Source: Escherichia phage LPEK22
Strand: one strand, 5' to 3'
DNA length: 64,000 nucleotides
Sequence record: OK283619.1
Shown: positions 47,459 through 59,369 of the stretch, one piece after another
Layout of the letters: every line of letters begins with the position of its first letter
How positions within the stretch are numbered: the stretch's first letter is position 1
The notes under the pieces: model-generated
Seen by the model: the letters and a program-made list of their open reading frames with translations, nothing else
What the model was told of the DNA's origin: nothing
Database searches by the model: none
Position numbers and translations under genes: made by a program

Positions 47459-48079
47459 ATGGCTATGTATTTGCAGGGGAAGTATGTTCCCGTAAATCCC
47501 AAGAAATATAAAGGCGACGTGAACAAAATAGTATTTCGTTCTTCGCTAGAACTTGTCGCCTTTAAATTTTGTGATATGAATCCTGCTATCGTCTATTGGT
47601 CTTCAGAAGAAACTGTAATCCCTTACATATCTCCGGTTGATGGCCGCGCCCATCGTTATTTCATGGATTTGAAGGTTTGGACTCGTCGGCAGGATTCCGA
47701 TGAATTACAAATTACTCTTATTGAAATAAAACCCAAAGACCAGATTAAAGAACCTCGCAAAACTAAAACGATGAAGGAATCAACATTCAATAATTCAATG
47801 CGCACTTGGTTGGTAAATCAGGCAAAGTGGACAGCAACTAAAGAACATTGTGCAAAGGTGGGTTGGAAATTCATTATCTGGACAGAAGAACATTTGGTGC
47901 CAGGTGAAGACCCAGAAGTTAAAAAACAATTTGCTCTTCGTTCTAAGAAAAAGCGCGAAGTCGAAATGGAAGATCGACGCCGCGCTCAAAGGATTAATGC
48001 GTTGAAAGAGCAAATGAAGAAGGAAACTGCTAATAAACAACCAACGCAATCGGAAGATGATGGTTTGTTATTACCCTGA
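47459..48079 (+). CDS. head completion protein (T4 gp4 family, PD-(D/E)xK-like)
   Basis: KYKGDVNKIVFRSSLEL...WSSEETVIPYISPVDGRAHRYFMD...LIEIKPKDQ matches recalled gp4-family signature. Confidence 0.55.
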   Translation: MAMYLQGKYVPVNPKKYKGDVNKIVFRSSLELVAFKFCDMNPAIVYWSSEETVIPYISPVDGRAHRYFMDLKVWTRRQDSDELQITLIEIKPKDQIKEPRKTKTMKESTFNNSMRTWLVNQAKWTATKEHCAKVGWKFIIWTEEHLVPGEDPEVKKQFALRSKKKREVEMEDRRRAQRINALKEQMKKETANKQPTQSEDDGLLLP

Positions 48080-48289
48080 TTTCCTTGGATGTCCAGGGGC
48101 AAAGCAAGTTTGTTTGTCCCTGCATATCATCCACCCATCAGCACGGGCTTGTCTAGCACAGTCTCCCCAAGATTCACCAGCATAAGACTTCATCCCACAT
48201 CTGGGGTGATGTTCTTCCCAAGCCCAATTACAAGATTTGCATTCAACACACTCACAATACAAATCGACGGTGTATCCTGCAGTAATCAT
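48071..48289 (-). CDS. Cys-rich small protein (72 aa)
   Basis: CECVECKSC...CGMKS...CARQ...CRDKQTC. Confidence 0.4.
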   Translation of the reverse strand: MITAGYTVDLYCECVECKSCNWAWEEHHPRCGMKSYAGESWGDCARQARADGWMICRDKQTCFAPGHPRKSG

Positions 48290-48697
48290 TTAGTCACCCA
48301 GATGATCATAAATTTTTTGACGGAATTCGTTCCCTTTAGCACAACCTGTAGCCAACAGGCGAGTACCGCCCGTGCCAATAACACTGATGGTTGAAAACTT
48401 CAGGATACGGCCTGTAATAGACTGGTCCACCTTAATGGTTTCTACTTTACCAAGACGAAGTTCATCAGCATCACGACGAATAAATCCCCGTTTGACAATA
48501 ACACGCTTGTTGGTGACTGCGAATTCAGTTGTCAATACATTTAAAATTGTTGGTATCAGAAATAACAAGCTGAATCCAAATGTTGGGATAATCGTTAAAA
48601 TAACCAGAACATAAATCCAAAAACCGCTCCACCAAGTCGGGCGGGTGAAAGCGATGACATGTTCATTTTCGCCGAGCATGCGGTCTACATAACGCAT
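48290..48697 (-). CDS. membrane protein with bacterial PH domain (bPH_2 / DUF304-like)
   Basis: Two TM helices (FWIYVLVILTIIPTFGFSLLFLIPTIL) then YAVTNKRVIVKRG...LRLGKVETIKVDQS...ISVIGTGG. Confidence 0.55.
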   Translation of the reverse strand: MRYVDRMLGENEHVIAFTRPTWWSGFWIYVLVILTIIPTFGFSLLFLIPTILNVLTTEFAVTNKRVIVKRGFIRRDADELRLGKVETIKVDQSITGRILKFSTISVIGTGGTRLLATGCAKGNEFRQKIYDHLGD

Positions 48698-48698
48698 T

Positions 48699-49226
48699 TT
48701 AATTCCTTACTTTGTCTGGGTTGGATAAGATTTGTTCGTATCCGACTTCGCCTTGATCGTCGAAAACGTGTTTAAGGATCGCCATATCGTCTACCATCCG
48801 ATAAACTTCAATTCCAGCGTTCATCAATTTTTTGATTCCATCCATGATACGATATGGCTCTTGATAATATACTTTATCGATCTTGCCGTTGTCGATGATC
48901 TTCTGAGTGCAATCAGGGCATGGGCTATGTGTCACAAACATAACCAACCCTGTGAAATCATCTGCATTTTCGGGGATACGCATTAGAGCATTTTCCTCCG
49001 CATGAATGACACACGGGTTTGTAACAATTTGCCCGTGTTGTTCCATCTCACAAACATTCGGCATGCCAGGAGGCGTTCCGTTCCATCCGATAGCCACAGG
49101 CTGATCAGTTTCAGGGTTTACGATAACACAACCGACTTGCAGACGCCGAGCATAACTGGTTACACCATATGCTGCAGCTGATCGCATATGGGCGAACATC
49201 ATACGTGGTTTAATCATTTTTAACAC
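48699..49226 (-). CDS. dCMP deaminase
   Basis: Zinc-binding HAEENAL and SPCPDC motifs. Confidence 0.8.
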   Translation of the reverse strand: MLKMIKPRMMFAHMRSAAAYGVTSYARRLQVGCVIVNPETDQPVAIGWNGTPPGMPNVCEMEQHGQIVTNPCVIHAEENALMRIPENADDFTGLVMFVTHSPCPDCTQKIIDNGKIDKVYYQEPYRIMDGIKKLMNAGIEVYRMVDDMAILKHVFDDQGEVGYEQILSNPDKVRN

Positions 49227-49617
49227 CCTTTAATTTGTTCATGAAACGGCGGAAAATGCTTGGTTTGTTATTTTCCATATTTTCTGTCAAGGTCAATTTC
49301 ATCACATAATTCGTTGCCATATCAACTTTAGATTCACGGATGAAGATATGTTCCCCTGGTAGATCTATGGCTATCGCTTCAGACACTATTTCTAAAGCTG
49401 AACCAATCATGGCCGCGACTCGAAGATGACCAAAACTTAATACTCCTTTGGCGTCCTTTTCAATGGCACGGTATACTTTATCGACTTCACCAGCCAATAT
49501 TATCTTCAGCCATTCAGTGTATTCCGTATCATAAGGATCATATATGAAAATTTCCCCATATATGAGTTCGTTGTCTTCCCTTCGAGTTAACTCAAACTTC
49601 AGGCGATAACGTTTCAT
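49210..49617 (-). CDS. hypothetical protein (135 aa)
   Basis: ORF. Confidence 0.45.
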   Translation of the reverse strand: MKRYRLKFELTRREDNELIYGEIFIYDPYDTEYTEWLKIILAGEVDKVYRAIEKDAKGVLSFGHLRVAAMIGSALEIVSEAIAIDLPGEHIFIRESKVDMATNYVMKLTLTENMENNKPSIFRRFMNKLKGVKND

Positions 49618-49955
49618 TTGACCACCACATTTTTCTCAATGTAGAAAATAAGATCATCATGGTCCTGGCGACCAAATACTTGTCCCAACGCCAACATAGA
49701 GTTCACAACACCAGAGATAGCCGTGTGGACTTTATCCATACCCAATTTGTCATACGTGATTGGGGACAGTTTTTCCAGTTCAACGTTCACACGTTCAACA
49801 ATGTGAGGTGGGTGATTGATATAACGTTGAAGATACTTTTCACGCAACGCAATTTTTTCGATAAGATCTGACATTTCTGCATTCTCTTCTGAATACAGAC
49901 GTTCTTTAGATTTCAGTTCTTCGAGGCGTTCGTACATTTCTTTTAATGAAATCAT
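49614..49955 (-). CDS. hypothetical protein (113 aa)
   Basis: Start at internal ATG with GGGAGAG SD after terminator hairpin. Confidence 0.45.
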   Translation of the reverse strand: MISLKEMYERLEELKSKERLYSEENAEMSDLIEKIALREKYLQRYINHPPHIVERVNVELEKLSPITYDKLGMDKVHTAISGVVNSMLALGQVFGRQDHDDLIFYIEKNVVVK

Positions 49956-49987
49956 GTTTGTCTCTCCCAATAAATTAAGGGGAAGTA

Positions 49988-50015
49988 TACCTTCCCCTTT
50001 CTTCAATAACCTAAA
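49988..50015 (-). terminator. rho-independent terminator (minus strand)
   Basis: Minus strand GGGGAAG-loop-CTTCCCC followed by TTAATTTATT. Confidence 0.5.
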
Positions 50016-50018
50016 ATA

Positions 50019-50369
50019 TTATTCAGTACATGCTTTACCGAGGTCTGTAAGCCTATAGAATGTTACTTCAGACTTCGGCCAATGCTTATACTCTTCAGAG
50101 TTGTCATGAACCATTGTAAACGCAGGTTCTATCAGACCTTTAGACAACAAGGATTGACCTGAACGCGTATCCCATGGATCACCCTTTACAGAACGAAACC
50201 CGCCAGATATCGGTGGCGCATGAAAAGTCCAAACCGTTTTCCCTTTATCGTTCGTCCAAGATTTGGGATTGAAATACCAATGACAAAGGCGTCTAGCTTC
50301 ACCTTTTTCAAAATTCAACATTCCTAAAAGGACGCAGAGTTGATGTCCTGTGATGCGTGGCTTTTTCAT
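50019..50369 (-). CDS. hypothetical protein (116 aa)
   Basis: ORF. Confidence 0.45.
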   Translation of the reverse strand: MKKPRITGHQLCVLLGMLNFEKGEARRLCHWYFNPKSWTNDKGKTVWTFHAPPISGGFRSVKGDPWDTRSGQSLLSKGLIEPAFTMVHDNSEEYKHWPKSEVTFYRLTDLGKACTE

Positions 50370-50698
50370 AAGATCCCCAAGTCAGTAAGGTAACGATAAA
50401 ACAAGATTATAGACAGAAATCCAATTAACACCCAAGACGACAGGATGGGCTTGCAATTTAGCGTAGTCTTTCCATTGGGTATGTTGGGACTTCCGGTAAT
50501 AACGACGGAGTCTGTTTTGGCTCTCAGCGTCATGACAGAACCCATGAGGATGATTGGGCGCACATAATGCCCTTCATGATTGCGCTTCACGATACATGGT
50601 GAAGAAAATCGCAGGAACGGATCACCGCTTTTATAACCAAATAACTCGACCTTTTGTATTTCTTCGGGTACTTTCTGACCAGGAAAGAATATTCTCAT
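50366..50698 (-). CDS. hypothetical protein with C-terminal TM segment (110 aa)
   Basis: ORF; C-terminal [13 protein letters not shown]. Confidence 0.45.
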
Positions 50699-51255
50699 AA
50701 CACAATTCCTAAATTTGTGTATAATAACTCAGCCAGGGTTACAGGACGCTTGAATTGTTCCCAACTGCAGTTCAGGTATTCGCGCTCTTCGCGAATATTT
50801 TCGTGAAGATGACCATGGATATTATACGCCCAACGGTCTAATTGATAAGGAACATGTGTTGTCAACACACGGCCAACAGGCGTGTCACGTTCATACATAG
50901 CGCCGAAGGAGCTAATCCAGCCGTCCAGATACAGAGACAACAACATCTTAAAGCTGTCATGGTTGCCTTGTGCCACCTTGATGATAAAGTTCGGACGCCA
51001 GTCATCGGGAACGGGGCGTCGCTTAAACTCATCAATGTTTCGCTTGGCACCCTCCCGCATCAGGCGAATGAACCCTTCAGCCCCGATGAAGCATATATCA
51101 CCAGCCAGTTCAAGAACGTCCCGAGACTTCAACCCCTGAAAGATACTGTCAATGACCGCAGCGTCATGGGCTTCCTGTGTATCAAATCCACGCGGTTTAA
51201 AGACCTTCTTATGCCCAAGATGAGTGTCACCAAGGTGCTTTACAATTCCCGCCAT
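50695..51255 (-). CDS. calcineurin-like metallophosphoesterase
   Basis: Motifs [22 protein letters not shown]; start at internal ATG giving TGATG coupling. Confidence 0.6.
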
Positions 51256-51596
51256 TATGGTTTCCTCAGCCATTCTAAAATCGGCACGTTCACAAACCCT
51301 TTATGCCAACGATGCGGTTTGTGACCTCTATTATGTTCGAGCAAACACGTGTCTGGTGGGACACTGAAGTGGATGCCTTCGATGTCGTAGTAATGTCCGT
51401 CAATCAGAGTATACACATGACCTTCGATCTGGCTGTAATGGATCTCTGCTTGAGGATACACATGCTTCAGAACCAGAGCAACCTGATAGCACTTTCCGTT
51501 CTTCCCAACATACTCAACATCCACCTGTTGTGGGAAGACGTCTTTGATAAGATTTATCAATCTCGTGATGTCATTTACAACAACTGAACGTTTCAT
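51255..51596 (-). CDS. hypothetical protein (113 aa)
   Basis: ORF. Confidence 0.45.
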
Positions 51597-51598
51597 CT

Positions 51599-52261
51599 CT
51601 ATGATAACTCATGGCGATGTCGAACACACGCAGGGCAATCACAATTCTTTTTCAAAATTGGCAATTCACACCATGTCATTAAGTCATGTATTGGGGACAT
51701 GTGATGATAGAACCAAGATTTCTTGAGACTAATCAATGGATATAAAATTTCAATAGGTCTTTCCCCGTCTCTGGTCATCATGTTGTACCCTTCAATGACT
51801 TTATTAAAGGCGGGTATCCAGTGTATTGCGTCATCGCCGTTAACATATGCCAATATATACGTGGAAGGCAAGCTCCTGCCTTTAAATTGCGTGTTTAATA
51901 ACCATATCGGGGCTTGTGCTAAACAAGAGCGAAAACCACCGTTCGGGACGTTGATGCTACTGATAGGTTCTTGATGATGTGTCCAACGATACATGAGAAG
52001 TGGGGCATTTTTATTAATCCAGTTGTGTATTTTATTCCTCGCCCAATTTTCGCGCTTAGATTTAAATTTATTATTTTCGAGGTGGCAATACACAGTATGA
52101 ACTGAATATCCTTTCGATAACAACCAAATCAACATGTATGTGCTATCCACCCCACCAGACCAGAACAACGTCACTTCTTGATTATTCTCCGGTAATGGAG
52201 CATCCCCTTGAAGAACACGGTATACAAAATCACAATCAGATATTGAGACAACAATTTCCAT
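51599..52261 (-). CDS. QueC-like PP-loop ATPase (7-cyano-7-deazaguanine synthase family) with divergent active-site region
   Basis: PP-loop FWSGGVDST; C-terminal Cys cluster WCELPILKKNCDCPAC parallels QueC zinc site as recalled; central GVCETDFSGYPDCR-equivalent region replaced. Confidence 0.6.
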   Translation of the reverse strand: MEIVVSISDCDFVYRVLQGDAPLPENNQEVTLFWSGGVDSTYMLIWLLSKGYSVHTVYCHLENNKFKSKRENWARNKIHNWINKNAPLLMYRWTHHQEPISSINVPNGGFRSCLAQAPIWLLNTQFKGRSLPSTYILAYVNGDDAIHWIPAFNKVIEGYNMMTRDGERPIEILYPLISLKKSWFYHHMSPIHDLMTWCELPILKKNCDCPACVRHRHELS

Positions 52262-52557
52262 TAAAATATTCCTCTTAAAGAATCATTTATCCTGCGCAAT
52301 TCGTTTTCCACTTTTATCTTCATATTTTTATCGTCGTTCACGAAAATCATTTTATCTAAATCTTCGCCATTAATCTTTGTATAAAAATAAATGTCATGCT
52401 CAAAGAAAATCGTTTTTCCAACAGAACGCATGGCAAAGAACGTTGCGATAGTTCTTGATAAAGGTTTGAATTTAATGGCATTGAAACGCAAAGCCTGATA
52501 GAGAGGTTTTAATGTTCCTAAGCGAATACAATGCTGGATAATTTCTTGCTCTTTCAT
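52261..52557 (-). CDS. hypothetical protein (98 aa)
   Basis: ORF. Confidence 0.45.
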   Translation of the reverse strand: MKEQEIIQHCIRLGTLKPLYQALRFNAIKFKPLSRTIATFFAMRSVGKTIFFEHDIYFYTKINGEDLDKMIFVNDDKNMKIKVENELRRINDSLRGIF

Positions 52558-52595
52558 TTGTTGTGCGCCATAAAGATATGATGGTACAATGATAA

Positions 52596-52630
52596 TACAT
52601 TATACAAATAGAAAAGCCCCTTTCGGGGCT
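52596..52630 (-). terminator. rho-independent terminator (minus strand)
   Basis: Minus strand AGCCCC-GAAA-GGGGCT followed by TTTCTATTTG. Confidence 0.55.
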
Positions 52631-52920
52631 TATTTGTCTTCAGATTCGTACAAACGCCAATTGCCGATGCTAAACCATTCCCCCACATTATTTGAATATC
52701 TGGTTGTTCGGACTCCTCCGACTTCATACGCCCATTTGAAGAATTTCCATTTGGACGATAAAGAAGGGCATTCGCTTCCGGATTTCAAAGAACACGCTGT
52801 GAGCCAACGCGTAATACTGAGAGCCTGAAAAATCGGATGGATAAATGAAGAATACAATATCCAAAGCGTTATGGCAACAAAAACAATGGTCGTGATCACC
52901 CCGACAATTTGAAAGAACAT
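52630..52920 (-). CDS. small membrane protein (96 aa)
   Basis: N-terminal TM VGVITTIVFVAITLWILYSSF. Confidence 0.4.
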   Translation of the reverse strand: MFFQIVGVITTIVFVAITLWILYSSFIHPIFQALSITRWLTACSLKSGSECPSLSSKWKFFKWAYEVGGVRTTRYSNNVGEWFSIGNWRLYESEDK

Positions 52921-52996
52921 TTAAGAACCTCCAAAATATTGAACACAGACTATGAAGAAAACTATGATTGTAAACAACCATGAAACAAGGAAAGAT

Positions 52997-53629
52997 TCAT
53001 CCTTCCACCTTCAGCCCCATCAGGTCTTCCATGGTTTTCTGAATGCGTAGCCAGTCAAGCGCCGCATCATAACGAGGGTCATGATAGATCATACCTTCCA
53101 GTTCCCACGCCTTGATACCAGCATATCGATCCTGCTGCCCAACACCCTTCAGCCAGCTTACGATGTCAAATGTGTGGTGATAGTCCCAAGGTTCGTTGGA
53201 ATCTTGCTTACACGTCACCTCAATGATGTGCTGAGCCTTGCGTAGGTCAAACAGATTCCTATCACACCAGTCAACCGATCGCGGGTCGATCCCAAGGCGA
53301 TGGCATCCCCTGCGAATTTCATCGGCCAATTTGAAAATAGAAATATCCTTGTCGGTCGGATATAGACTGATAGCTCGGGCGGCGTCGCACGGGTTGCGTT
53401 TACCTGTACCCAGCCACCATTCCACAGTGCCCTGGTCTTTCACACGGCCAAGTTCAATCTGTTCTTTGACATTCAGTTTGATAAATGTCGTGCGCTCTAC
53501 AACAAGCTGCTGAAGAGTATAACGCTTGGTCAGGTCGGCGATAGTCTGTGCCCAAGACAACATGACAGCATCATCCCAACGACCGAGAGTTTCGCTATCA
53601 GCGACGGCCAAGAAATTAGATTTATACAT
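52997..53629 (-). CDS. DEDDh-type 3'-5' exonuclease-like protein (DexA-like?)
   Basis: Candidate Exo I motif VADSET and Exo III-like YHHTFD. Confidence 0.4.
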   Translation of the reverse strand: MYKSNFLAVADSETLGRWDDAVMLSWAQTIADLTKRYTLQQLVVERTTFIKLNVKEQIELGRVKDQGTVEWWLGTGKRNPCDAARAISLYPTDKDISIFKLADEIRRGCHRLGIDPRSVDWCDRNLFDLRKAQHIIEVTCKQDSNEPWDYHHTFDIVSWLKGVGQQDRYAGIKAWELEGMIYHDPRYDAALDWLRIQKTMEDLMGLKVEG

Positions 53630-53966
53630 CAGTTTCCCCTGCTTTCTCTAAAAGAAGTTTCAAAGGATATGTCCCACAAGCGGTGGCATACTCGACTTTG
53701 AAATATGAATTATCGTTCATGGCGAAATTTCGATGTGGGAAATATTCCCCGTCATCCAACCCGCCTAATCCCCCGCCGACGCGATATTGTTTTAACTCGA
53801 CTTCGCCGCCATAACGGAGTTGGGCATATAGGCCGATAGGAGCGCGAACATAATGCTCCAGCCATACCCAATTTCCATCGTGTAAACGTGTAGGGATAAA
53901 TGCAAAACGCACCTTGGGATGAAGAACGGCTTTGGCGAGCATCTCTTCTGTTATTTCACGCTTCAT
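53622..53966 (-). CDS. hypothetical protein (114 aa)
   Basis: ORF. Confidence 0.45.
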   Translation of the reverse strand: MKREITEEMLAKAVLHPKVRFAFIPTRLHDGNWVWLEHYVRAPIGLYAQLRYGGEVELKQYRVGGGLGGLDDGEYFPHRNFAMNDNSYFKVEYATACGTYPLKLLLEKAGETDV

Positions 53967-54568
53967 CCAATACCTTCCTCTTCGATGATATCTTCTTCAC
54001 TAGCGACGACAGAGATTCCGTAGTCTACCATCTGGGAAAGTTCTTGTAAATCTTGTTCAAACCCGTCACCCTGTCGGATATAAAAGACGGGTACGACACG
54101 ACGCCTGGTATCTTCGAAGATAGTATCTGCGATTTTATTAATCTGGCTCACCACATGAAACAGTTTCAATCCACCGATGCCACAGCCGATGGCGGGTAAA
54201 CCAACATAGACTGTTTCGTCAGTTTTTGCCTCAATGATATCGTGAACTTGTTCAAACATAATCTGAACTGAACTGATAATGGAAGGCATGCGTGCGTTAG
54301 GACCAGGGTAGAACTGAGTGTACAAATTGAATCCCCAGACACCAGTGTCATGATCAAACGCATAGGACATGTTCCCCAAACGTTGTTCCGGACCACGTTC
54401 ATCTAATTGGTCGGCTCGGTAAATTTCTGGGAAATCTAATCGAACATGGTTGGCGATACCTGCGCCCATCACAGACCAACAATTTGCGCCATGAGCGAAA
54501 GCATTGATGAGATTAAAACTCGTAGCGGCTTTCAGTAAATCGCCGTTTGTGATAACATATGTGGTCAT
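53963..54568 (-). CDS. macro-domain protein (ADP-ribose binding / hydrolase-like)
   Basis: INAFAHGANCWSVMGAGIA resembles macro-domain NAAN...GGGV motif; ATGA coupling at chosen start. Confidence 0.6.
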   Translation of the reverse strand: MTTYVITNGDLLKAATSFNLINAFAHGANCWSVMGAGIANHVRLDFPEIYRADQLDERGPEQRLGNMSYAFDHDTGVWGFNLYTQFYPGPNARMPSIISSVQIMFEQVHDIIEAKTDETVYVGLPAIGCGIGGLKLFHVVSQINKIADTIFEDTRRRVVPVFYIRQGDGFEQDLQELSQMVDYGISVVASEEDIIEEEGIG

Positions 54569-54801
54569 GCGTAACGTCTCCATTGTATAATTTCGTTGTT
54601 GACACAGCTAACCTGGATGATACACATATTCTGGCGATGGTCAGTGAGTGTCATAATAAAACTGTCTGTCTGTGCCATAACGCAATTGACAGATATTCCT
54701 CGCATTATCAAACGAACACAGATTTCTTGATATAATCGTTTCATGTATCCTGAAACTGAAGCGGACTCATACACGCGTTCAAATTCATATAACTCGTTCA
54801 T
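54565..54801 (-). CDS. hypothetical protein (78 aa)
   Basis: ORF. Confidence 0.4.
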   Translation of the reverse strand: MNELYEFERVYESASVSGYMKRLYQEICVRLIMRGISVNCVMAQTDSFIMTLTDHRQNMCIIQVSCVNNEIIQWRRYA

Positions 54802-55022
54802 TTATTCAGACCATCAATAGCGTGTTCAGAAATATATTCAACGAATTGGTTATCAGCTGCCATCTTTAAAAGTTCAAATAATTCCGTTCCAACGGTACTC
54901 CCAAACATCCCTTCCAATACACCCTGAACATCTTCATCTATTTCTTCGATGACGAGTCCATACGATTTCAGGCGGCGTGAAATAGCACGGAACTGGGCAA
55001 TATCACCAATTTCATTTGCCAT
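54798..55022 (-). CDS. hypothetical acidic protein (74 aa)
   Basis: ORF. Confidence 0.4.
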   Translation of the reverse strand: MANEIGDIAQFRAISRRLKSYGLVIEEIDEDVQGVLEGMFGSTVGTELFELLKMAADNQFVEYISEHAIDGLNK

Positions 55023-55071
55023 GTTATTTGTCTCATTATGGGGTTAGGCGGCAATTATACCGCCAATTTAT

Positions 55072-55485
55072 TCAATAGAGGTCTTCGGAAAAGAGTTCTT
55101 TGAAAGGAGTGTTCTTCAAACGGACCTGATTAGTTTGTCCGGCTTCACGAGCGACCACAGCAGCCTCTTCACGGGACATCCATTGCCCATAGTTATCAAT
55201 AAACCCTTGTTCACGAGTGTGGGTGGTTTCGATAATACCTGCTTCCTTCAATCGTTTGAGTTGCGTGTTCATCAATTTGTCGTGATGTCGGGCGCTTACA
55301 ACGATCACATCACCATATTTGTTGGCAGCAGCCACAACACGCCGATCAAACTTGGTTGGGTCAGGTATATCACGAGCATACAAGGCGATGTGAGTGTCGT
55401 TCACGTCCCCTTTCACTTCAGAGTATAATTGACACCCATTAGGAGATCCAGTAGGCAAAGAACGAAAATATCCAAGTAATTTCAT
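55072..55485 (-). CDS. hypothetical protein (137 aa)
   Basis: ORF. Confidence 0.45.
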   Translation of the reverse strand: MKLLGYFRSLPTGSPNGCQLYSEVKGDVNDTHIALYARDIPDPTKFDRRVVAAANKYGDVIVVSARHHDKLMNTQLKRLKEAGIIETTHTREQGFIDNYGQWMSREEAAVVAREAGQTNQVRLKNTPFKELFSEDLY

Positions 55486-55488
55486 AAT

Positions 55489-55800
55489 CTAATCTATCCA
55501 TATTTCAGGTTCAGGAATATCGACCATCTCCACGGTTTGATTCTTTAATTCGTGGAAACAATCTCCAAGGAATTGTAATTTGCCATCTGTCAAAAATAAA
55601 TGGCAACGGCTATTTGGATCAGAATGATTCACCAACAGACTAGGAGTGAAAGTCGGTGCTTCGAGATCGTGATTCCATTGCCATATTGGGCCAGGCGTTT
55701 GCCCTGAAATGCGATAAGGATGAAGCATATTACATCCAGGACAATGAAAATATATGGAACCACCCATTGATAATAATTTTGGGGTCAATAATTTTGACAT
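55489..55800 (-). CDS. hypothetical Cys/His-containing protein (103 aa)
   Basis: Internal ATG with GGAGG SD; motifs YFHCPGC...DCFH. Confidence 0.45.
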   Translation of the reverse strand: MSKLLTPKLLSMGGSIYFHCPGCNMLHPYRISGQTPGPIWQWNHDLEAPTFTPSLLVNHSDPNSRCHLFLTDGKLQFLGDCFHELKNQTVEMVDIPEPEIWID

Positions 55801-55801
55801 A

Positions 55802-56080
55802 TCACGCCTCCACTTCTTCATCAGGATTGTATGGGCGTAATTCTCCAATTAACTTAGGGAATAATGCGAATCCAAATAAATTAAATGAACGCATGGTGCC
55901 AACCATACCCACTTCATCCGATTCGGTTACATCAGAAAGAGCGCAAAGAGGTATCCATAAATCTTGTTGACCTTCATGATTGACAAAAGCAACTTCCTCT
56001 TTAATAAAACGAGGGCATAAGATATCGAACAACCAATAGAAGAAAGTCAGCAATGAGAGACTGCGGAAATATACAAACAT
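55802..56080 (-). CDS. small membrane protein (92 aa)
   Basis: Internal ATG with GAGGGG SD; N-terminal hydrophobic MFVYFRSLSLLTFFYWLF. Confidence 0.4.
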   Translation of the reverse strand: MFVYFRSLSLLTFFYWLFDILCPRFIKEEVAFVNHEGQQDLWIPLCALSDVTESDEVGMVGTMRSFNLFGFALFPKLIGELRPYNPDEEVEA

Positions 56081-56122
56081 GGTGAACCCCTCGCTTGTTT
56101 GGAGGGAATTCACCCTCCAGAT

Positions 56123-57454
56123 TTATAGGCCCAATGCCTTTTCAAGATCATCTAAATCTTCAGTATAAAGATCGATGTCTTGCTTATTATTTAATTCTTC
56201 TCGTTGAACTTCTAAATTCTTTATCTGGTTCAACAAACGTTCACGGGCATCTAGTGTAATTGATGATAAAGACATCTTGAATAAATCATCGAGATCGCCA
56301 TCAAAATCAGGATAGTCTGTCTGGAATAACGCTTTCAGTTCCGTGAGGCTCCGGCGCATATCTGTAACGACAGCCCACCCAATGAATATGGCACGATTGT
56401 TCAAACGGTGTATTTTGTCGGTCAATTCCTTGATAAGATACTGACGTCTATCTTCATAGCGACTCAGGCGATAATTGAAAAATGGAAGCAACATATCTTT
56501 CCAACCATCGTAACGGTGAATAACACCATCTTCATCCCAAGCTGTCCACACGGGCTTATTAGCTGAGTAGAGGCGGAACATTTGTTCAACCTGTTCGTCA
56601 TTCAACTTAGACAATTCACCCCGCTTGAATACAACAGTGATATCCCAACCATCTTCGGTCGTATCGTTAGCATATTCAGTGAGTATGCCGGATTTGTACA
56701 ACGGCAACAACACTTTGGTCTCATAGGTTTTAGAGAACCAACCAATAGGAACCTCGGTGATGTTCAGAGTGGTTGCATTGACGCGGGTGAACAAACCACG
56801 ACTGTATGCTCTTCCTTCCTCAGTATAGCCTGTCTCTCCTTTGAAACCATTCCAGTACGGTTTTAAGTCCTTCGGGTCTTCGCCACGGAGAAGTGCTCTC
56901 AGGGCACTGAGCACGGACTTAACGCAGTGGCATGGGGTGTCGGTGGCATAACCCGAGCCGATACCATTGATACCATTCACGAGAAACATGGGCAGGATGG
57001 GTAAAAAGAATTTCGGCTCCAGTTTCTCTTCCCCAAGATAATTGTATTCCAATATCCCATCGTCCTCCTTTCGGAAGATCTTACGGATAACTTCAGACAC
57101 TGCCACTGAAATATAACGAGCGGAAGACGCTTCGCGCCCCATGATTGAACCAAACTGGCCATCGCGGTCAAAGTATGGGATGTTGTTCGTACCTGGGAAC
57201 CCCTGAGCCATGTTCACGATCGTACCGCTCATGTTCTCACCACCAGATTTGTAATTCGTGCGAGCGGCGGCGAACATGCCAAGGCGGTCAACAATCTCCT
57301 CCTTGTTGTATTCAAGAGCAGCGAAGAGTATCTTGCGCTGGCTTGGCTTCAGGCTGTCAATCAGCTGAGGGATTTGACGGATGCTGTTGACCACGGAAAA
57401 CTCCTTGTGGTCGGTGTTGACAAAGTCCGTTACAGTAATGCTCTTGGCAACCAT
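56123..57454 (-). CDS. DNA topoisomerase II medium subunit (T4 gp52-like, GyrA-type catalytic domain)
   Basis: LKPSQRKILFA and active-site region SSARYISVAVSE parallel gp52 as recalled; start placed at ATG after gp39 stop (GAGGA SD). Confidence 0.85.
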   Translation of the reverse strand: MVAKSITVTDFVNTDHKEFSVVNSIRQIPQLIDSLKPSQRKILFAALEYNKEEIVDRLGMFAAARTNYKSGGENMSGTIVNMAQGFPGTNNIPYFDRDGQFGSIMGREASSARYISVAVSEVIRKIFRKEDDGILEYNYLGEEKLEPKFFLPILPMFLVNGINGIGSGYATDTPCHCVKSVLSALRALLRGEDPKDLKPYWNGFKGETGYTEEGRAYSRGLFTRVNATTLNITEVPIGWFSKTYETKVLLPLYKSGILTEYANDTTEDGWDITVVFKRGELSKLNDEQVEQMFRLYSANKPVWTAWDEDGVIHRYDGWKDMLLPFFNYRLSRYEDRRQYLIKELTDKIHRLNNRAIFIGWAVVTDMRRSLTELKALFQTDYPDFDGDLDDLFKMSLSSITLDARERLLNQIKNLEVQREELNNKQDIDLYTEDLDDLEKALGL

Positions 57455-57455
57455 C

Positions 57456-59369
57456 TTATTCATCCTCGGTTTCAAATAGGCAAACATCGCTAAACCAGGT
57501 TTTGCGGTAATCGGCGGCCTCATCACCGAAGCCATTCTTCAGTGACTGCTTGTATCCATCGTCCAGCGTGACCGTCGTAGTATACGCATCCAGGTTGTTT
57601 AGAATACGCTTGAAGTCTTCAGTGCTGTTACCGCCAAGACCTTTCAGATATTTCTTCTTCGTGATCTTCTTGGCGTCTGGTGTCTTCAGGAACTCCTCAT
57701 ATTCGGCATTGTTCATGAATTCATGCATTATATTACCACACCACACGCGCATGTATGGAGTACGAAGGAGCTTCAGCCTACCCTGACGAACGTATTCAGG
57801 CCAGAACGTACAATACAGAGTTATTAACAACCCACGGATGTGAATGCCGTCGTCATCCGCGTCTGTTGCCACGACGGTCTGTGGATAGCGACTGATATCA
57901 AGCGGCTGGCCTGGCACAGCACCGCCGTGAATGGTGCATAAATTCTTGAATTCTTCGTTCGCCATCACCTTTGAGCGCGGGGCGTTCAGGCAGTTGATGA
58001 ACTTACCACGAAGCGGGAACAAACCAATTTTCTTGGTATCACGAGCGTTCAGGATAGGGTTGGATGCGCTATCACCTTCTGTCAGTAGCAGAGAACACCC
58101 ACTGCGGTCGCCTCTGGCGGTCGCCGGATAATACTTCTCAATCTCACGATAATCCCGTTTGCTGATATCCTTCTTCGCCTTTTCAAATTCGGCATCTTCT
58201 TGTTCATTGCGTAATGAAGCCAGTTCTTTACTCAGCCCTGCTGTCACGAACTCAAGCGCCTTGCGAATCAGTTTATCGCTGGGCTTGTAGGACGTACCAA
58301 ACTGGCTCACAGGAGTCGTCATGCGCTCCTTGGTCTGGCTGTCAAAGCGAGGGTTGTTGATGTCGGCGGCGATGAACAATGACATGTGGTTCTTGATCAT
58401 CGCTGGCTTCAGTTCGGTCTTGAACTTCTTAACCAGCTGAGGGCGTATCGCCGCCACAATCTGGTCGGCAACATAATCAACGTGAGGTCCACCGATGTGC
58501 GTGGCGATTGAGTTCACGTATGACGCATGCATGAACACACCAGATGAGGGAGTGATAGCAACAGACCAATCATCCGTTTCATCAACAGCCGAGCCAGCGT
58601 AGAAGTAATCAACGAAATGACCAAATCGATCAATGCGGATTTGCTTGCCGTTGAGAACAACCTTCAGGCGCGGGTTGCATGCCGCCACTTCGAATGCACG
58701 ACGGTAAATCATGAGCAGGTTGTTCTGGTCAAGCCCCTTAACACCCAGGCGCGCATAATCAGGGATCCAGGCAATAGTGGTGCCGAACTCTTTCGGTGTA
58801 TTGCCGATGACCGGATTGGACTTCTTGCTCATGTTGTCTTCAAACAGCTGAGTATAAGACTTCTTGCCGTCACTGGTAGCAACGCGGAACCACTTTGAGA
58901 ACACGTTGACGAGCGAAGCCCCTTCACCGTTCTGGCCGCCGGACTTCTGGTTGTTGTACTCCTCGTCCTCATCGTTGAAGTTGCTGCCCGCATAGAGCGA
59001 GCCAAACAACATCTCAGGGAGCCACTCATTGGTGACGCCATGCTTGACCACAGGGATACCCCCGTTGTCGGAAACGATGATTTGACCGTTCATAGGGGAG
59101 ACCGTGACGGTGATTTCCGTCAAGCCTTTACCCTCAGGGGTCTTGCTGTGGTCAACACAGTTGGTGATGATTTCATCAAACTGTTTGATCAGCGCAGGGG
59201 AGTACTCAAAGTTGTCACGGAAGATGACTTTGTCTTTGGTTGGGTCATACACCCACACCGTCCCCACAGACGAACGGATACTGCCCAGATGACGCTCTGG
59301 GCGAAGTAGGATATGCTCTATGTGAGTGAGCTTTTTGTATTTGCGTTCAATATCAATTTTGTTGGACAT
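57456..59369 (-). CDS. DNA topoisomerase II large subunit (T4 gp39 with gp60 region fused; GyrB-type ATPase plus Toprim)
   Basis: GHKL ATPase N-terminus, Toprim LLTEGDSA, 637 aa. Confidence 0.85.
   Translation of the reverse strand: MSNKIDIERKYKKLTHIEHILLRPERHLGSIRSSVGTVWVYDPTKDKVIFRDNFEYSPALIKQFDEIITNCVDHSKTPEGKGLTEITVTVSPMNGQIIVSDNGGIPVVKHGVTNEWLPEMLFGSLYAGSNFNDEDEEYNNQKSGGQNGEGASLVNVFSKWFRVATSDGKKSYTQLFEDNMSKKSNPVIGNTPKEFGTTIAWIPDYARLGVKGLDQNNLLMIYRRAFEVAACNPRLKVVLNGKQIRIDRFGHFVDYFYAGSAVDETDDWSVAITPSSGVFMHASYVNSIATHIGGPHVDYVADQIVAAIRPQLVKKFKTELKPAMIKNHMSLFIAADINNPRFDSQTKERMTTPVSQFGTSYKPSDKLIRKALEFVTAGLSKELASLRNEQEDAEFEKAKKDISKRDYREIEKYYPATARGDRSGCSLLLTEGDSASNPILNARDTKKIGLFPLRGKFINCLNAPRSKVMANEEFKNLCTIHGGAVPGQPLDISRYPQTVVATDADDDGIHIRGLLITLYCTFWPEYVRQGRLKLLRTPYMRVWCGNIMHEFMNNAEYEEFLKTPDAKKITKKKYLKGLGGNSTEDFKRILNNLDAYTTTVTLDDGYKQSLKNGFGDEAADYRKTWFSDVCLFETEDE

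Follow-up and report, generated by a model that had tools for sequence, protein, structure and literature searches.

Described counterparts and phage identity

Counterparts of the region studied here have been published for several Kuttervirus genomes: SFP_0013-0030 of SFP10, Vi01_014-032, CBA120 orf016-039 and Det7 132-150. Beyond this genus, phage T4 provides an experimentally characterized reference, as its Tk.4/AdfM protein protects T4 from DarTG2 and a knockout sensitises the phage (preprint, bioRxiv 10.1101/2025.11.20.689424). One Taipeivirus was shown to carry 5-NeOmdU, for which the listed genes encode a dUMP hydroxymethyltransferase, a kinase, two aGPT-Pplases and a PLP enzyme. A Kuttervirus singleton among the QueC-like proteins, from phage ECML-4, was already put aside as a different subfamily (Hutinet et al., 2019).

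Judged from its sequence, the window (the whole stretch of 64,000 nucleotides analysed) belongs to a Kuttervirus (Ackermannviridae), a group of Salmonella/E. coli phages. In nucleotide comparison the whole block at 48071-55848 is 99.9% identical to the Kuttervirus genomes S117, kage and SFP10, and the identity is 98-99.9% for the set of SFP10, S117, kage, PhaxI and FEC14. We consider the segment to be the variable slot for accessory genes in an SFP10-like Kuttervirus, with a mixed content that includes a probable counter-defence enzyme, and assign this reading a probability of roughly 0.7.

Boundaries and gene content of the slot

The slot follows the topoisomerase II genes and runs up to a convergent head-completion gene. 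It comprises 21 co-oriented minus-strand genes, 20 of which lie within 48071-55848 according to the ORF listing and the PHROG and Pfam scans. The initial annotation had counted about 22 consecutive minus-strand genes; the co-oriented run is confirmed, but the real count is 20-21 after removal of two probably spurious ORFs that it may have included. These ORFs (52554-52727 and 52724-52981) have no family match, and one overlaps g09 while the other overlaps terminator T1, so both were rejected and are probably not genes. The block had also been placed between ligase and topoisomerase genes on one side and structural genes on the other. Topoisomerase II and the head-completion/baseplate genes do flank it, but in the SFP10 annotation DNA ligase is not adjacent. 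The genes, all on the minus strand, are:

g01, 55802..56080, minus: small hydrophobic protein, first gene after topoisomerase II-M (phrog_2241, E 3e-39)
g02, 55489..55800, minus: DUF6527 protein with CxxC...C...C (Pfam PF20137, E 5e-13; phrog_3362, E 6e-46)
g03, 55072..55485, minus: Arn.3-like protein (Pfam T4_Y16D)
g04, 54798..55022, minus: acidic protein of 74 aa, patchy (phrog_5924)
g05, 54565..54801, minus: DUF7234 protein (Pfam PF23881, E 3e-39)
g06, 53963..54583, minus: DarG-type macrodomain, T4 Tk.4/AdfM homologue (phrog_335, E 5e-74)
g07, 53622..53966, minus: patchy gene (phrog_5613)
g08, 52997..53629, minus: DexA-type DEDDh 3'-5' exonuclease (phrog_255, E 3e-53)
g09, 52630..52920, minus: small membrane protein with an N-terminal anchor, transmembrane segment at residues 5-23 (phrog_2531, E 2e-37)
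g11, 52261..52557, minus: patchy gene (phrog_9302)
g12, 51599..52261, minus: stand-alone PP-loop ATPase resembling QueC/Cap9, Zn-type Cys cluster at the C-terminus (phrog_1550, E 1e-81)
g13, 51255..51596, minus: phage YunG-like protein (Pfam PF24591, E 6e-43)
g14, 50695..51255, minus: small calcineurin-type metallophosphoesterase (phrog_547, E 6e-43)
g15, 50366..50698, minus: DUF7618 protein, C-terminal transmembrane segment at residues 82-100 (Pfam PF24594, E 4e-52)
g16, 50019..50369, minus: widely conserved gene, four genera (phrog_4677)
g17, 49614..49955, minus: divergent allele (phrog_4059, match from residue 18 of the long ORF)
g18, 49210..49617, minus: lineage-specific gene (phrog_13393)
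g19, 48699..49226, minus: dCMP deaminase, Cd (Pfam PF00383, E 5e-17; phrog_174, E 9e-65)
g20, 48290..48697, minus: membrane protein with a bPH_2 domain (Pfam PF03703, E 1.7e-12; phrog_3707, E 3e-76)
g21, 48071..48289, minus: 72-aa peptide with 8 Cys (phrog_926, E 2e-26)

The domains listed earlier (Cys-rich, bPH_2, dCMP deaminase, metallophosphoesterase, QueC-like, exonuclease and macrodomain) were all recovered, and the two small membrane proteins correspond to g09 and g15. A transmembrane segment is also present in g20, and the SFP10 and kage annotations call g01, which lies just outside 48071-55848, a membrane protein. Family matches of g02 begin at residue 17 of the long ORF, and for g16 a PDB sequence search returned no relative. 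The 3' end of g21 extends 9 nt into the convergent head-completion gene; this peptide is annotated in Vi01, Det7 and AG3, not in SFP10 or kage, and shows 45-100% identity in four genera. About 13 proteins of the slot received no functional assignment in the Pfam and PHROG scans. The content could be divided into (a) two nucleotide-pool enzymes, dCMP deaminase, which makes the dUMP that enters the phage's thymidine hypermodification, and the DexA exonuclease; (b) one probable counter-defence enzyme, the Tk.4/AdfM-type macrodomain; (c) g12 and g14, enzymes with intact active-site motifs; and (d) some 13 small proteins, three or four of them membrane-bound.

Variability across the Ackermannviridae

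A presence/absence matrix was made for 15 Ackermannviridae genomes from six genera. In all 15 the slot lies at the same place, between gp4 and topoisomerase II-M, but its length ranges from 2,215 to 9,934 bp. Only the bPH gene g20 and the deaminase gene g19 are found in every genome (15/15); g01 is found in 14/15 relatives. Most other genes are patchy, and g12, g14, g13, g15, g11, g07, g05 and g04 are variably present or absent. Conservation of all genes in order, with housekeeping functions throughout, would have spoken against the accessory character proposed in the initial annotation; instead, both length and content vary among the 15 genomes.

The absences differ from gene to gene. In the genomes compared, g04 is absent from maane, SilasIsHot, AG3, EspM4VN and PWKp5, g07 is absent or replaced in SilasIsHot, AG3, PWKp5 and RCIP0012, and g11 is absent from maane, SilasIsHot and all non-Kuttervirus genomes; g13 occurs only in Kuttervirus and Agtrevirus, and g15 only in Kuttervirus and EspM4VN. 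The g17 allele is 68-69% identical to other Kuttervirus genomes, with flanking genes at 96-100%. Matches to its neighbour g18 came from 59 phage records and no others, 42 of them at >= 95% identity and 17 at < 60%; among the 15 genomes this gene is confined to the SFP10 lineage, and a few other Kuttervirus records carry divergent alleles. This SFP10-lineage cassette of g18 and the divergent g17 is carried here, whereas Vi01, CBA120, Det7, maane and SilasIsHot are without it. In our reading, gene cassettes are acquired, lost and exchanged within the slot, while its anchors stay fixed: topoisomerase II at one side and the bPH and deaminase genes at the other.

Internal terminators and expression

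Two internal terminators had been proposed, and both are present on the minus strand at positions conserved among relatives:

T1, 52614-52631, minus: intrinsic terminator hairpin then U-run, AAGCCCCGAAAGGGGCTT + TTCTATTT, dG -16.6
T2, 49977-49999, minus: terminator-like hairpin, AAGGGGAAGGTATACTTCCCCTT + AATTTATT, dG -17.4

T1 sits directly 3' of the g09 stop, and T2 is located between g16 and g17, 21 nt upstream of the g17 start. Kuttervirus, Agtrevirus and Taipeivirus have both hairpins in the same gaps between genes, and Limestonevirus shares T2. The T1 stem is retained in the first three of these genera, and the T2 stem carries compensatory changes across four genera. Terminator-like sites number 15 in the scanned 10 kb, compared with 7.4 +/- 2.6 in shuffles. 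The two hairpins divide the slot into three sub-units, g01-g09, g11-g16 and g17-g21. A scan for sigma-70-like promoters showed no enrichment (20 found, 24.8 expected). Early or middle expression of the slot genes is inferred, and its timing is unproven, since a search found no transcript data for any Kuttervirus.

A macrodomain protein related to T4 Tk.4

The view of the block as a site of anti-defence and host-takeover functions holds in part: the slot is variable and g06 is homologous to T4 Tk.4/AdfM, but the dCMP deaminase and DexA serve the nucleotide pool. For a single gene of the 21, an anti-defence phenotype has been demonstrated in a homologue; it is described in the preprint for a protein sharing no more than 38% identity with g06 (over 114 aa, E 1e-18), and besides g06 no slot gene showed any link to defence or host takeover. 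Some of the small genes may act in host takeover.

The best defence-library and NCBIfam models for g06 are those of DarG (NCBIfam E 3e-9, PADLOC E 4e-10), and it matches PDB 5m3i at E 1e-4. We predict that g06 is a DNA ADP-ribosyl glycohydrolase countering DarT2, which would strip the ADP-ribose that this toxin places on thymidines of phage DNA. With T4 Tk.4 it shares 'LYTQF.PGPN' and 'P.IG.GIG' within the macrodomain core. The proteins differ in size (206 aa, compared with 155 aa for Tk.4), in an acidic 50-residue C-terminal extension that Tk.4 lacks, and in gene neighbours, DexA for g06 and vs and tk for Tk.4. At the position of 'FPTKKHW' in the DarG macrodomain, g06 has 'FYPGPNA' (PDB 5m3i alignment) and Tk.4 'FQPGPNF' (Tk.4 alignment), and the chemistry of g06 may therefore differ from that of DarG.

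This substitution, together with the C-terminal extension, could also mean that g06 is not directed against DarT. Its substrates would then be ADP-ribosylated proteins or RNA, or ADP-ribose-1''-phosphate, and it might, for instance, offset ADP-ribosyltransferases of the phage or the host or act against another NAD-based defence. Existing labels agree with such an activity, as the T4 record lists Tk.4 as an A1pp-motif phosphatase and the PHROG family of g06 is labelled 'phosphatase'. We nevertheless regard it as unlikely, although it is the most serious of the alternatives: the sole genetic phenotype reported for the family is the DarTG2 sensitivity of T4 without tk.4, the top curated models are those of DarG and not of other macrodomain classes, and 'LYTQF.PGPN' is common to both phage proteins.

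Other enzymes of the slot

In g12, Pfam detects the PP-loop only (23.9 bits), and the nearest solved fold is Cap9/QueC. Like QueC, Cap9 and QatC (Pfam PF06508 superfamily), the protein has the SGGxDS PP-loop, a C-terminal Cys cluster 'CE...C.C..C' and a P(x)4K element. In contrast to QueC and Cap9, it lacks the substrate motifs YxQxHxxE, VPxRN and YPDC, and an assignment as canonical QueC was rejected; its length is half that of QatC. The family is large and stood alone in every phage contig examined, with no FolE/QueD/QueE/DpdA, CD-NTase or QatABD neighbours in five contexts. For g14 a Pfam scan gave no match, while all five metal-binding motifs (GDxH, GD, GNHD, H, GHxH) are invariant and there are weak matches to PdeM and PDB 1xm7; its start is likely 51255, because homologues begin with MAG.

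The dCMP deaminase (T4 cd, E 1e-12) and the DexA-type exonuclease (T4 dexA, 25% identity over 217 aa, E 2e-7) are nucleotide-pool housekeeping functions. DexA is 71-95% identical in the non-Limestonevirus relatives, and both behave as core rather than accessory genes. One might take the entire block for a housekeeping operon of nucleotide metabolism and DNA modification, whose enzymes (deaminase, exonuclease, phosphoesterase, QueC-like ATPase and the macrodomain 'phosphatase') jointly serve synthesis of hypermodified thymidine DNA. The deaminase, present in all 15 genomes, makes dUMP, the entry substrate of that pathway, DexA is highly conserved, and the topoisomerase II genes directly precede the block. 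We consider this improbable, as the 5-NeOmdU enzymes are other proteins, none of them encoded in the block, and about 13 genes are without enzyme features. Moreover, the QueC-like gene and the phosphoesterase are both missing from the slots of LIMEstone1 and of PWKp5, a Taipeivirus, a genus with one member shown to carry 5-NeOmdU, while AG3 lacks the QueC-like gene and Det7 the phosphoesterase.

That the small ORFs are mostly non-functional filler or annotation noise is hardly credible: two ORFs of the region do look spurious and sister phages are viable despite the loss of several genes, but all 21 retained genes match PHROG families at E <= 1e-26, neighbouring genes touch or share a few bases and their frames are undisrupted, and many of their proteins are 45-90% identical between genera with a DNA identity of only ~70%.

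Comparison with known systems

Gene order and flanking genes agree with the published Kuttervirus counterparts, with no substantive difference. The sequence was already known and the system is not of a new kind; the accessory slot is real but ordinary.

By tblastn, the slot matches only four T4 genes (cd, dexA, tk.4 and arn.3), none of which encodes a structural or replisome protein, and 17/21 genes have no T4 homologue. In T4, arn.3 follows gene 52 on the same strand at a distance of ~1.2 kb, and g03 is placed likewise relative to the topoisomerase II-M gene. The arn-motA-52, dexA, cd and tk regions of T4 resemble the slot in having long co-oriented runs of small genes among nucleotide enzymes. 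The four homologues occupy four separate regions in T4, whereas in the Ackermannviridae they are brought together in one slot.

Location and gene content of the block

The minus-strand block at 48071-55848 matches 267 phage records in megablast searches, and in 159 of these at least 80% of the query lies in a single match. Highest in identity are three Salmonella phages, S117 and kage at 99.9% and SFP10 at 99.8%, which the record taxonomy places in Kuttervirus (Ackermannviridae); the block corresponds to SFP_0013-0030 of SFP10. Two of the matches, MN871475 (named as Pseudomonas phage Pa-sanjiao) and OR844942 (named as Enterococcus phage Efm 3-10), carry sequence that is 98-99% identical to Kuttervirus. 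Misassigned hosts or contaminated samples probably explain this.

In the SFP10 annotation, the block is flanked by the gene for the medium subunit of topoisomerase II (topoisomerase II-M) and, on the other side, by a convergent head-completion gene (gp4-like), followed by baseplate and tail genes. The initial annotation had placed the block between ligase and topoisomerase genes and structural genes; the topoisomerase II flank holds, but in the SFP10 annotation the DNA ligase gene is not adjacent. We refer to the stretch between gp4 and topoisomerase II-M as the slot.

From the ORF list and scans of Pfam, PHROG and NCBIfam, 20 minus-strand genes lie within 48071-55848, and one more (g01, 55802-56080) lies ahead of topoisomerase II-M. 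Each of these 21 genes matches a PHROG family at E <= 1e-26. The number of about 22 genes proposed initially is therefore supported as 20-21, as two ORFs (52554-52727 and 52724-52981) are probably not genes: neither has a family match, one overlaps g09 and the other the terminator T1, and conservation in Vi01 is low for both. Antisense ORFs on the plus strand (e.g. 50842-51324) were set aside because they lie wholly within well-supported minus-strand genes. Family matches and homologue alignments shifted three starts inward, to 55800 for g02, 51255 for g14 and 49955 for g17. Every domain named in the initial annotation was recovered in the scans or in motif and transmembrane checks, and the observation as a whole (gene run, terminators and domains) is confirmed. 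About 13 proteins of the slot are unassigned.

Selected features of the block
48071-48289, minus strand: g21, peptide of 72 aa with 8 Cys (phrog_926)
minus strand: g20, bPH_2 membrane protein (E 1.7e-12) with one strong transmembrane segment
minus strand: g09 and g15, two small membrane proteins
49977-49999, minus strand: T2, hairpin terminator between g16 and g17, predicted -17.4 kcal/mol
52614-52631, minus strand: T1, hairpin terminator directly past the g09 stop, predicted -16.6 kcal/mol

Four records (SFP10, kage, CBA120 and maane) lack an annotation for g21, despite 45-100% conservation over four genera. At 48071-48079, the 3' end of g21 runs 9 nt into the 3' end of the convergent head-completion gene, which is encoded on the plus strand at 47459-48079. 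Similarly, g15 (DUF7618; 50366-50698) is missing in the SFP10 RefSeq annotation, leaving an apparent gap there.

Variability of the slot in Ackermannviridae

The slot was taken from 14 more genomes (Vi01, CBA120, Det7, maane, SilasIsHot, AG3, EspM4VN, PWKp5, RCIP0012, IME250, LIMEstone1, RC-2014, phiMAM1 and phiEa2809) and each protein of the window was scored by tblastn; absence here means absence from the slot, as slots rather than whole genomes were compared. In every genome compared (n = 15) the slot is bounded by gp4 and topoisomerase II-M, with a length of 2.2-9.9 kb.

Length of the slot in the genomes compared
LIMEstone1: 2.2 kb
RC-2014: 3.5 kb
PWKp5: 5.3 kb
AG3: 6.2 kb
Kuttervirus, EspM4VN, RCIP0012, IME250, phiMAM1: 7.0-8.3 kb
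phiEa2809: 9.9 kb

Only g20 (bPH) and g19 (deaminase) are present in all 15 genomes. The genes g01, g02, g03, g16, g17 and g21, together with those for DexA (g08) and the macrodomain (g06), are widespread, and g12 (QueC-like), g14 (phosphoesterase), g13, g15, g11, g07, g05 and g04 are patchy. The g18 gene is lineage-specific and occurs in 59 phage records only (42 near-identical, 17 with less than 60% identity). The g17 gene is 68-69% identical to that of other Kuttervirus genomes, compared with 96-100% for the flanking genes; judged from these identities, such divergence inside near-identical flanks is the signature expected of a swapped cassette.

Thus, the 15-genome matrix shows the variable content at a fixed position that characterizes an accessory island. 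With its patchy gene content and variable length, the slot does not have the conserved gene order and exclusively housekeeping content that would argue against the initial annotation.

In some relatives, homing endonuclease genes are located beside the head-completion or baseplate genes bordering the slot (Det7, extract L011, 149-889; LIMEstone1, extract L006, 7658-8395 and 4951-6594; RC-2014, extract L016, 1947-3590). Mobile elements thus come and go at this border as well.

Terminators and expression

Both internal terminators of the initial annotation are present on the minus strand, with U-rich tails. The 10 kb scanned contain 15 terminator-like sites, compared to 7.4 +/- 2.6 in shuffled sequences. 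When the equivalent intergenic regions were extracted from 13 relatives, T1 and T2 kept their places in Kuttervirus, Agtrevirus and Taipeivirus. T2 was also present in Limestonevirus, and its stem shows compensatory changes between genera (AAGGGGAAGG/CTTCCCCTT, AAGGGGGAGT/ACTTCCCCTT and AAGGAGAGT/ACTCTCCTT). This makes both hairpins genuine, conserved RNA elements.

T2 ends 21 nt upstream of the g17 start. With so short a distance, g17-g21 would be expressed by read-through past T2 or from a promoter within g16. T2 may act as an attenuator or RNA-stability element instead of a full stop. The distance from T2 to the g17 start is fixed at 20-25 nt across relatives (equivalent sites in extracts L003-L016). 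The region past g21 gave no terminator hairpin in this lineage, whereas Agtrevirus and Limestonevirus carry one there. Two further GC-rich hairpins, both lacking a U-tail on the minus strand, lie at 55047-55064, between g03 and g04, where the hairpin scores as a terminator on the plus strand, and at about 56096-56117, just past the topoisomerase II-M stop codon.

A sigma-70 promoter scan gave no enrichment, and TATAAATA, the late-promoter consensus of T4, has just two occurrences in the window, both outside the block and not above chance; nothing on timing can be drawn from these results. A literature search on Kuttervirus transcription yielded nothing usable and no expression data. Of the interpretation put forward initially, the positionally fixed, content-variable slot stands, while early expression of the block and a host-takeover role for its genes are what we infer.

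Nucleotide enzymes and phosphoesterase

The g19 deaminase matches PF00383 (E 5e-17, 62 bits against a cut-off of 25) and T4 cd (E 1e-12), and contains the HAE and PCxxC motifs as HAEENA and PCPDC. The g08 protein matches phrog_255 (E 3e-53) and, over its full length, T4 dexA (E 2e-7), and shows the DEDDh motifs 'ADSET' near the N-terminus and 'H-D-P-R-Y-D' (H-x4-D) near the C-terminus; the Pfam Rv2179c-like match is weak (E 0.035).

All five metal-binding motifs of a metallophosphoesterase (DxH, GD, GNH[DE], H and GHxH) are found in g14, with G15-D16-x-H18, G58-D59, G103-N104-H105-D106, H140 and G154-H155-x-H157 invariant in six homologues from five genera. It matches phrog_547 'phosphoesterase' (E 6e-43) and, weakly and under the family cut-off, NCBIfam PdeM (E 0.002). 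There was no Pfam match at E <= 0.1, and a profile search of the PDB gave only a marginal match to 1xm7 (E 0.049).

For thymidine hypermodification to 5-NeOmdU in Ackermannviridae, the listed enzymes comprise a dUMP hydroxymethyltransferase, one kinase, a pair of aGPT-Pplases and a PLP decarboxylase, and the block encodes none of them. The only link of the block to this pathway would be the g19 deaminase as a supplier of dUMP, a role suggested by that of T4 Cd.

A probable anti-DarTG2 macrodomain

The g06 protein is 38% identical to T4 Tk.4 over 114 aa (BLASTP, E 1e-18) and matches T4 segments in tblastn (E 1e-14). Its best models are antitoxin_DarG in NCBIfam (E 3.2e-9) and DarG in PADLOC (E 3.7e-10), in both cases for the macro part only, and the Pfam Macro models gave no match at E <= 0.1. 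In the PDB, g06 matches the macrodomain chains 5m3i, 7omu and 5m31 (E 1e-4 to 5e-3), of which 5m3i and 5m31 are presumably DarG macrodomains. The family occurs in 2,722 phage records, and the g06 counterpart is labelled Tk.4-like in the AG3 and CBA120 records.

In T4, tk.4 is the single gene required on cells expressing DarTG2, and a clean knockout renders the phage DarTG2-sensitive; the gene was renamed adfM (2025 preprint, bioRxiv 10.1101/2025.11.20.689424). Based on this homology, g06 is a probable anti-DarTG2 macrodomain that most likely strips ADP-ribose off the thymidines of phage DNA, as is presumed for T4 too. In contrast to DarG, where the segment reads 'FPTKKHW', g06 has 'FYPGPNA' and T4 Tk.4 'FQPGPNF' at the same point, and the catalytic detail may therefore differ from that of DarG. 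The anti-defence character proposed for the block is thus credible for one gene, homologous to a validated T4 factor, whereas the deaminase and DexA are housekeeping nucleotide enzymes.

The QueC-like ATPase

The g12 protein matches Pfam QueC in the PP-loop only (23.9 bits). The SGGxDS signature is present as WSGGVDST, invariant in three alignments, two of Ackermannviridae (A1 and A2) and one of the wider family (A3). The zinc motif is a variant, C198-x8-C207-x-C209-x2-C212, compared to C(x)8CxxCxxC in QueC; three of its cysteines are invariant in A1 and A2, and all four in A3. Set against the published motif sets (PMC13329287), g12 keeps SGGxDS, the 'CE...C.C..C' cluster and the P(x)4K element. 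The catalytic and substrate motifs of canonical QueC, YxQxHxxE, VPxRN and YPDC (PMC13329287), are missing, the family consensus there being Y....NN..K..RE, FR..LAQAP and YVNGDDA. Therefore, g12 is not a preQ0 synthase, and the label 'QueC-like queuosine biosynthesis' is misleading.

A profile search of 1.84 billion representatives returned 1,425 relatives of g12, 639 of them, counted as clusters at 50% identity, at E < 1e-10. Nearly all are about 200-250 aa long, and 39 of 41 sampled match Pfam QueC weakly. In phages with 7-deazaguanine DNA, canonical QueC occurs together with FolE, QueD, QueE and DpdA; none of these is annotated in the 20-kb neighbourhood of g12 in SFP10. They are equally missing in five distant contexts, of which two are contigs of jumbo phages, one is T4-like, one is phiMAM1-like and the last is a bacterial chromosome, where the gene lies next to IS elements. 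On each of the four phage contigs inspected (two of them jumbo, the others Ackermannviridae-like or T4-like) the gene stands alone, with no deazaguanine-pathway neighbour. A conserved partner was not found either, the upstream and downstream ORFs in six contexts being mutually unrelated; a module of g12 with the YunG-like g13 was rejected, as AG3 carries g13 without g12. The singleton of the Kuttervirus phage ECML-4 was previously set aside as a different ATP-pyrophosphatase subfamily (Hutinet et al., 2019).

Two defence systems employ related proteins. Cap9 of type IV CBASS is encoded in an operon with a CD-NTase and Cap10, and QatC, of about 400 aa and with its own motif set, in one with QatA, QatB and QatD; in contrast, no CD-NTase or Qat genes lie beside the g12 homologues in the five distant contexts. 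A stand-alone phage enzyme interfering with nucleobase-based immunity is an improbable reading of g12, and the most speculative yet testable lead of this work. Such an enzyme would intercept or divert 7-carboxy-7-deazaguanine or an adenylated intermediate, its target being the supply for protein deazaguanylation in type IV CBASS (Cap9) and QatABCD (QatC). Alternatively, its product would be an amide or nitrile modification, so far unrecognised, of a nucleotide, a tRNA or a protein. What the alignments and contexts support is an enzyme other than canonical QueC, with apparently retained ATP and Zn sites and no conserved partner gene.

The family is otherwise phage-borne, with one bacterial member on the 4.2-Mb chromosome OW818669.1 (assembly GCA_942493195.1; extract L018, 8001-8687). 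There it sits among IS elements and large TPR, WD40, CHASE2 and nSTAND-type genes, in a region resembling a defence island.

Significance and relation to T4

Besides one credible anti-defence gene, the slot contains two nucleotide enzymes of the housekeeping type, two enzymes with no assigned substrate and about 13 proteins with no assigned role. As its sequence and layout are already present in well over a hundred public genomes, it is no new kind of system. The useful output is a corrected annotation for phages that are widely applied in the biocontrol of Salmonella and E. coli O157, together with a small set of variable genes worth screening. A gene recorded as 'Tk.4/hypothetical' can be labelled as a probable anti-DarTG2 macrodomain, and the variable genes g04, g05, g07, g11-g15, g17 and g18 make up a compact, clearly bounded set that would sensibly be tested first when Ackermannviridae genes are screened in pairs with defence systems.

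In g13 (51255-51596) a Cys...His...Asp pattern (GKCYQ ... EGHVY ... DGHYYD), seen by eye and with no tool support, is reminiscent of small papain-like or transglutaminase-fold hydrolases. A PDB profile search with g16 returned nothing. The g03 protein is 39% identical to T4 Arn.3 (E 1e-19; Pfam T4_Y16D), and its confident structure model has no fold match in the PDB, which leaves the labels 'C-N hydrolase' and 'tRNA processing enzyme' unsupported.

In tblastn searches of T4 segments outside 98-110 kb, only four block genes have T4 homologues (cd, dexA, tk.4 and arn.3), and unlike in the block these are scattered in T4. However, g03 follows the gene 52 homologue at a distance of about 0.6 kb (window 55072-57535), and in T4 arn.3 likewise follows gene 52, at about 1.2 kb and on the same strand (extract L023, T4 159500-166500). 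The order of Arn.3 and gene 52 is thus kept between T4 and the window over a long evolutionary distance.
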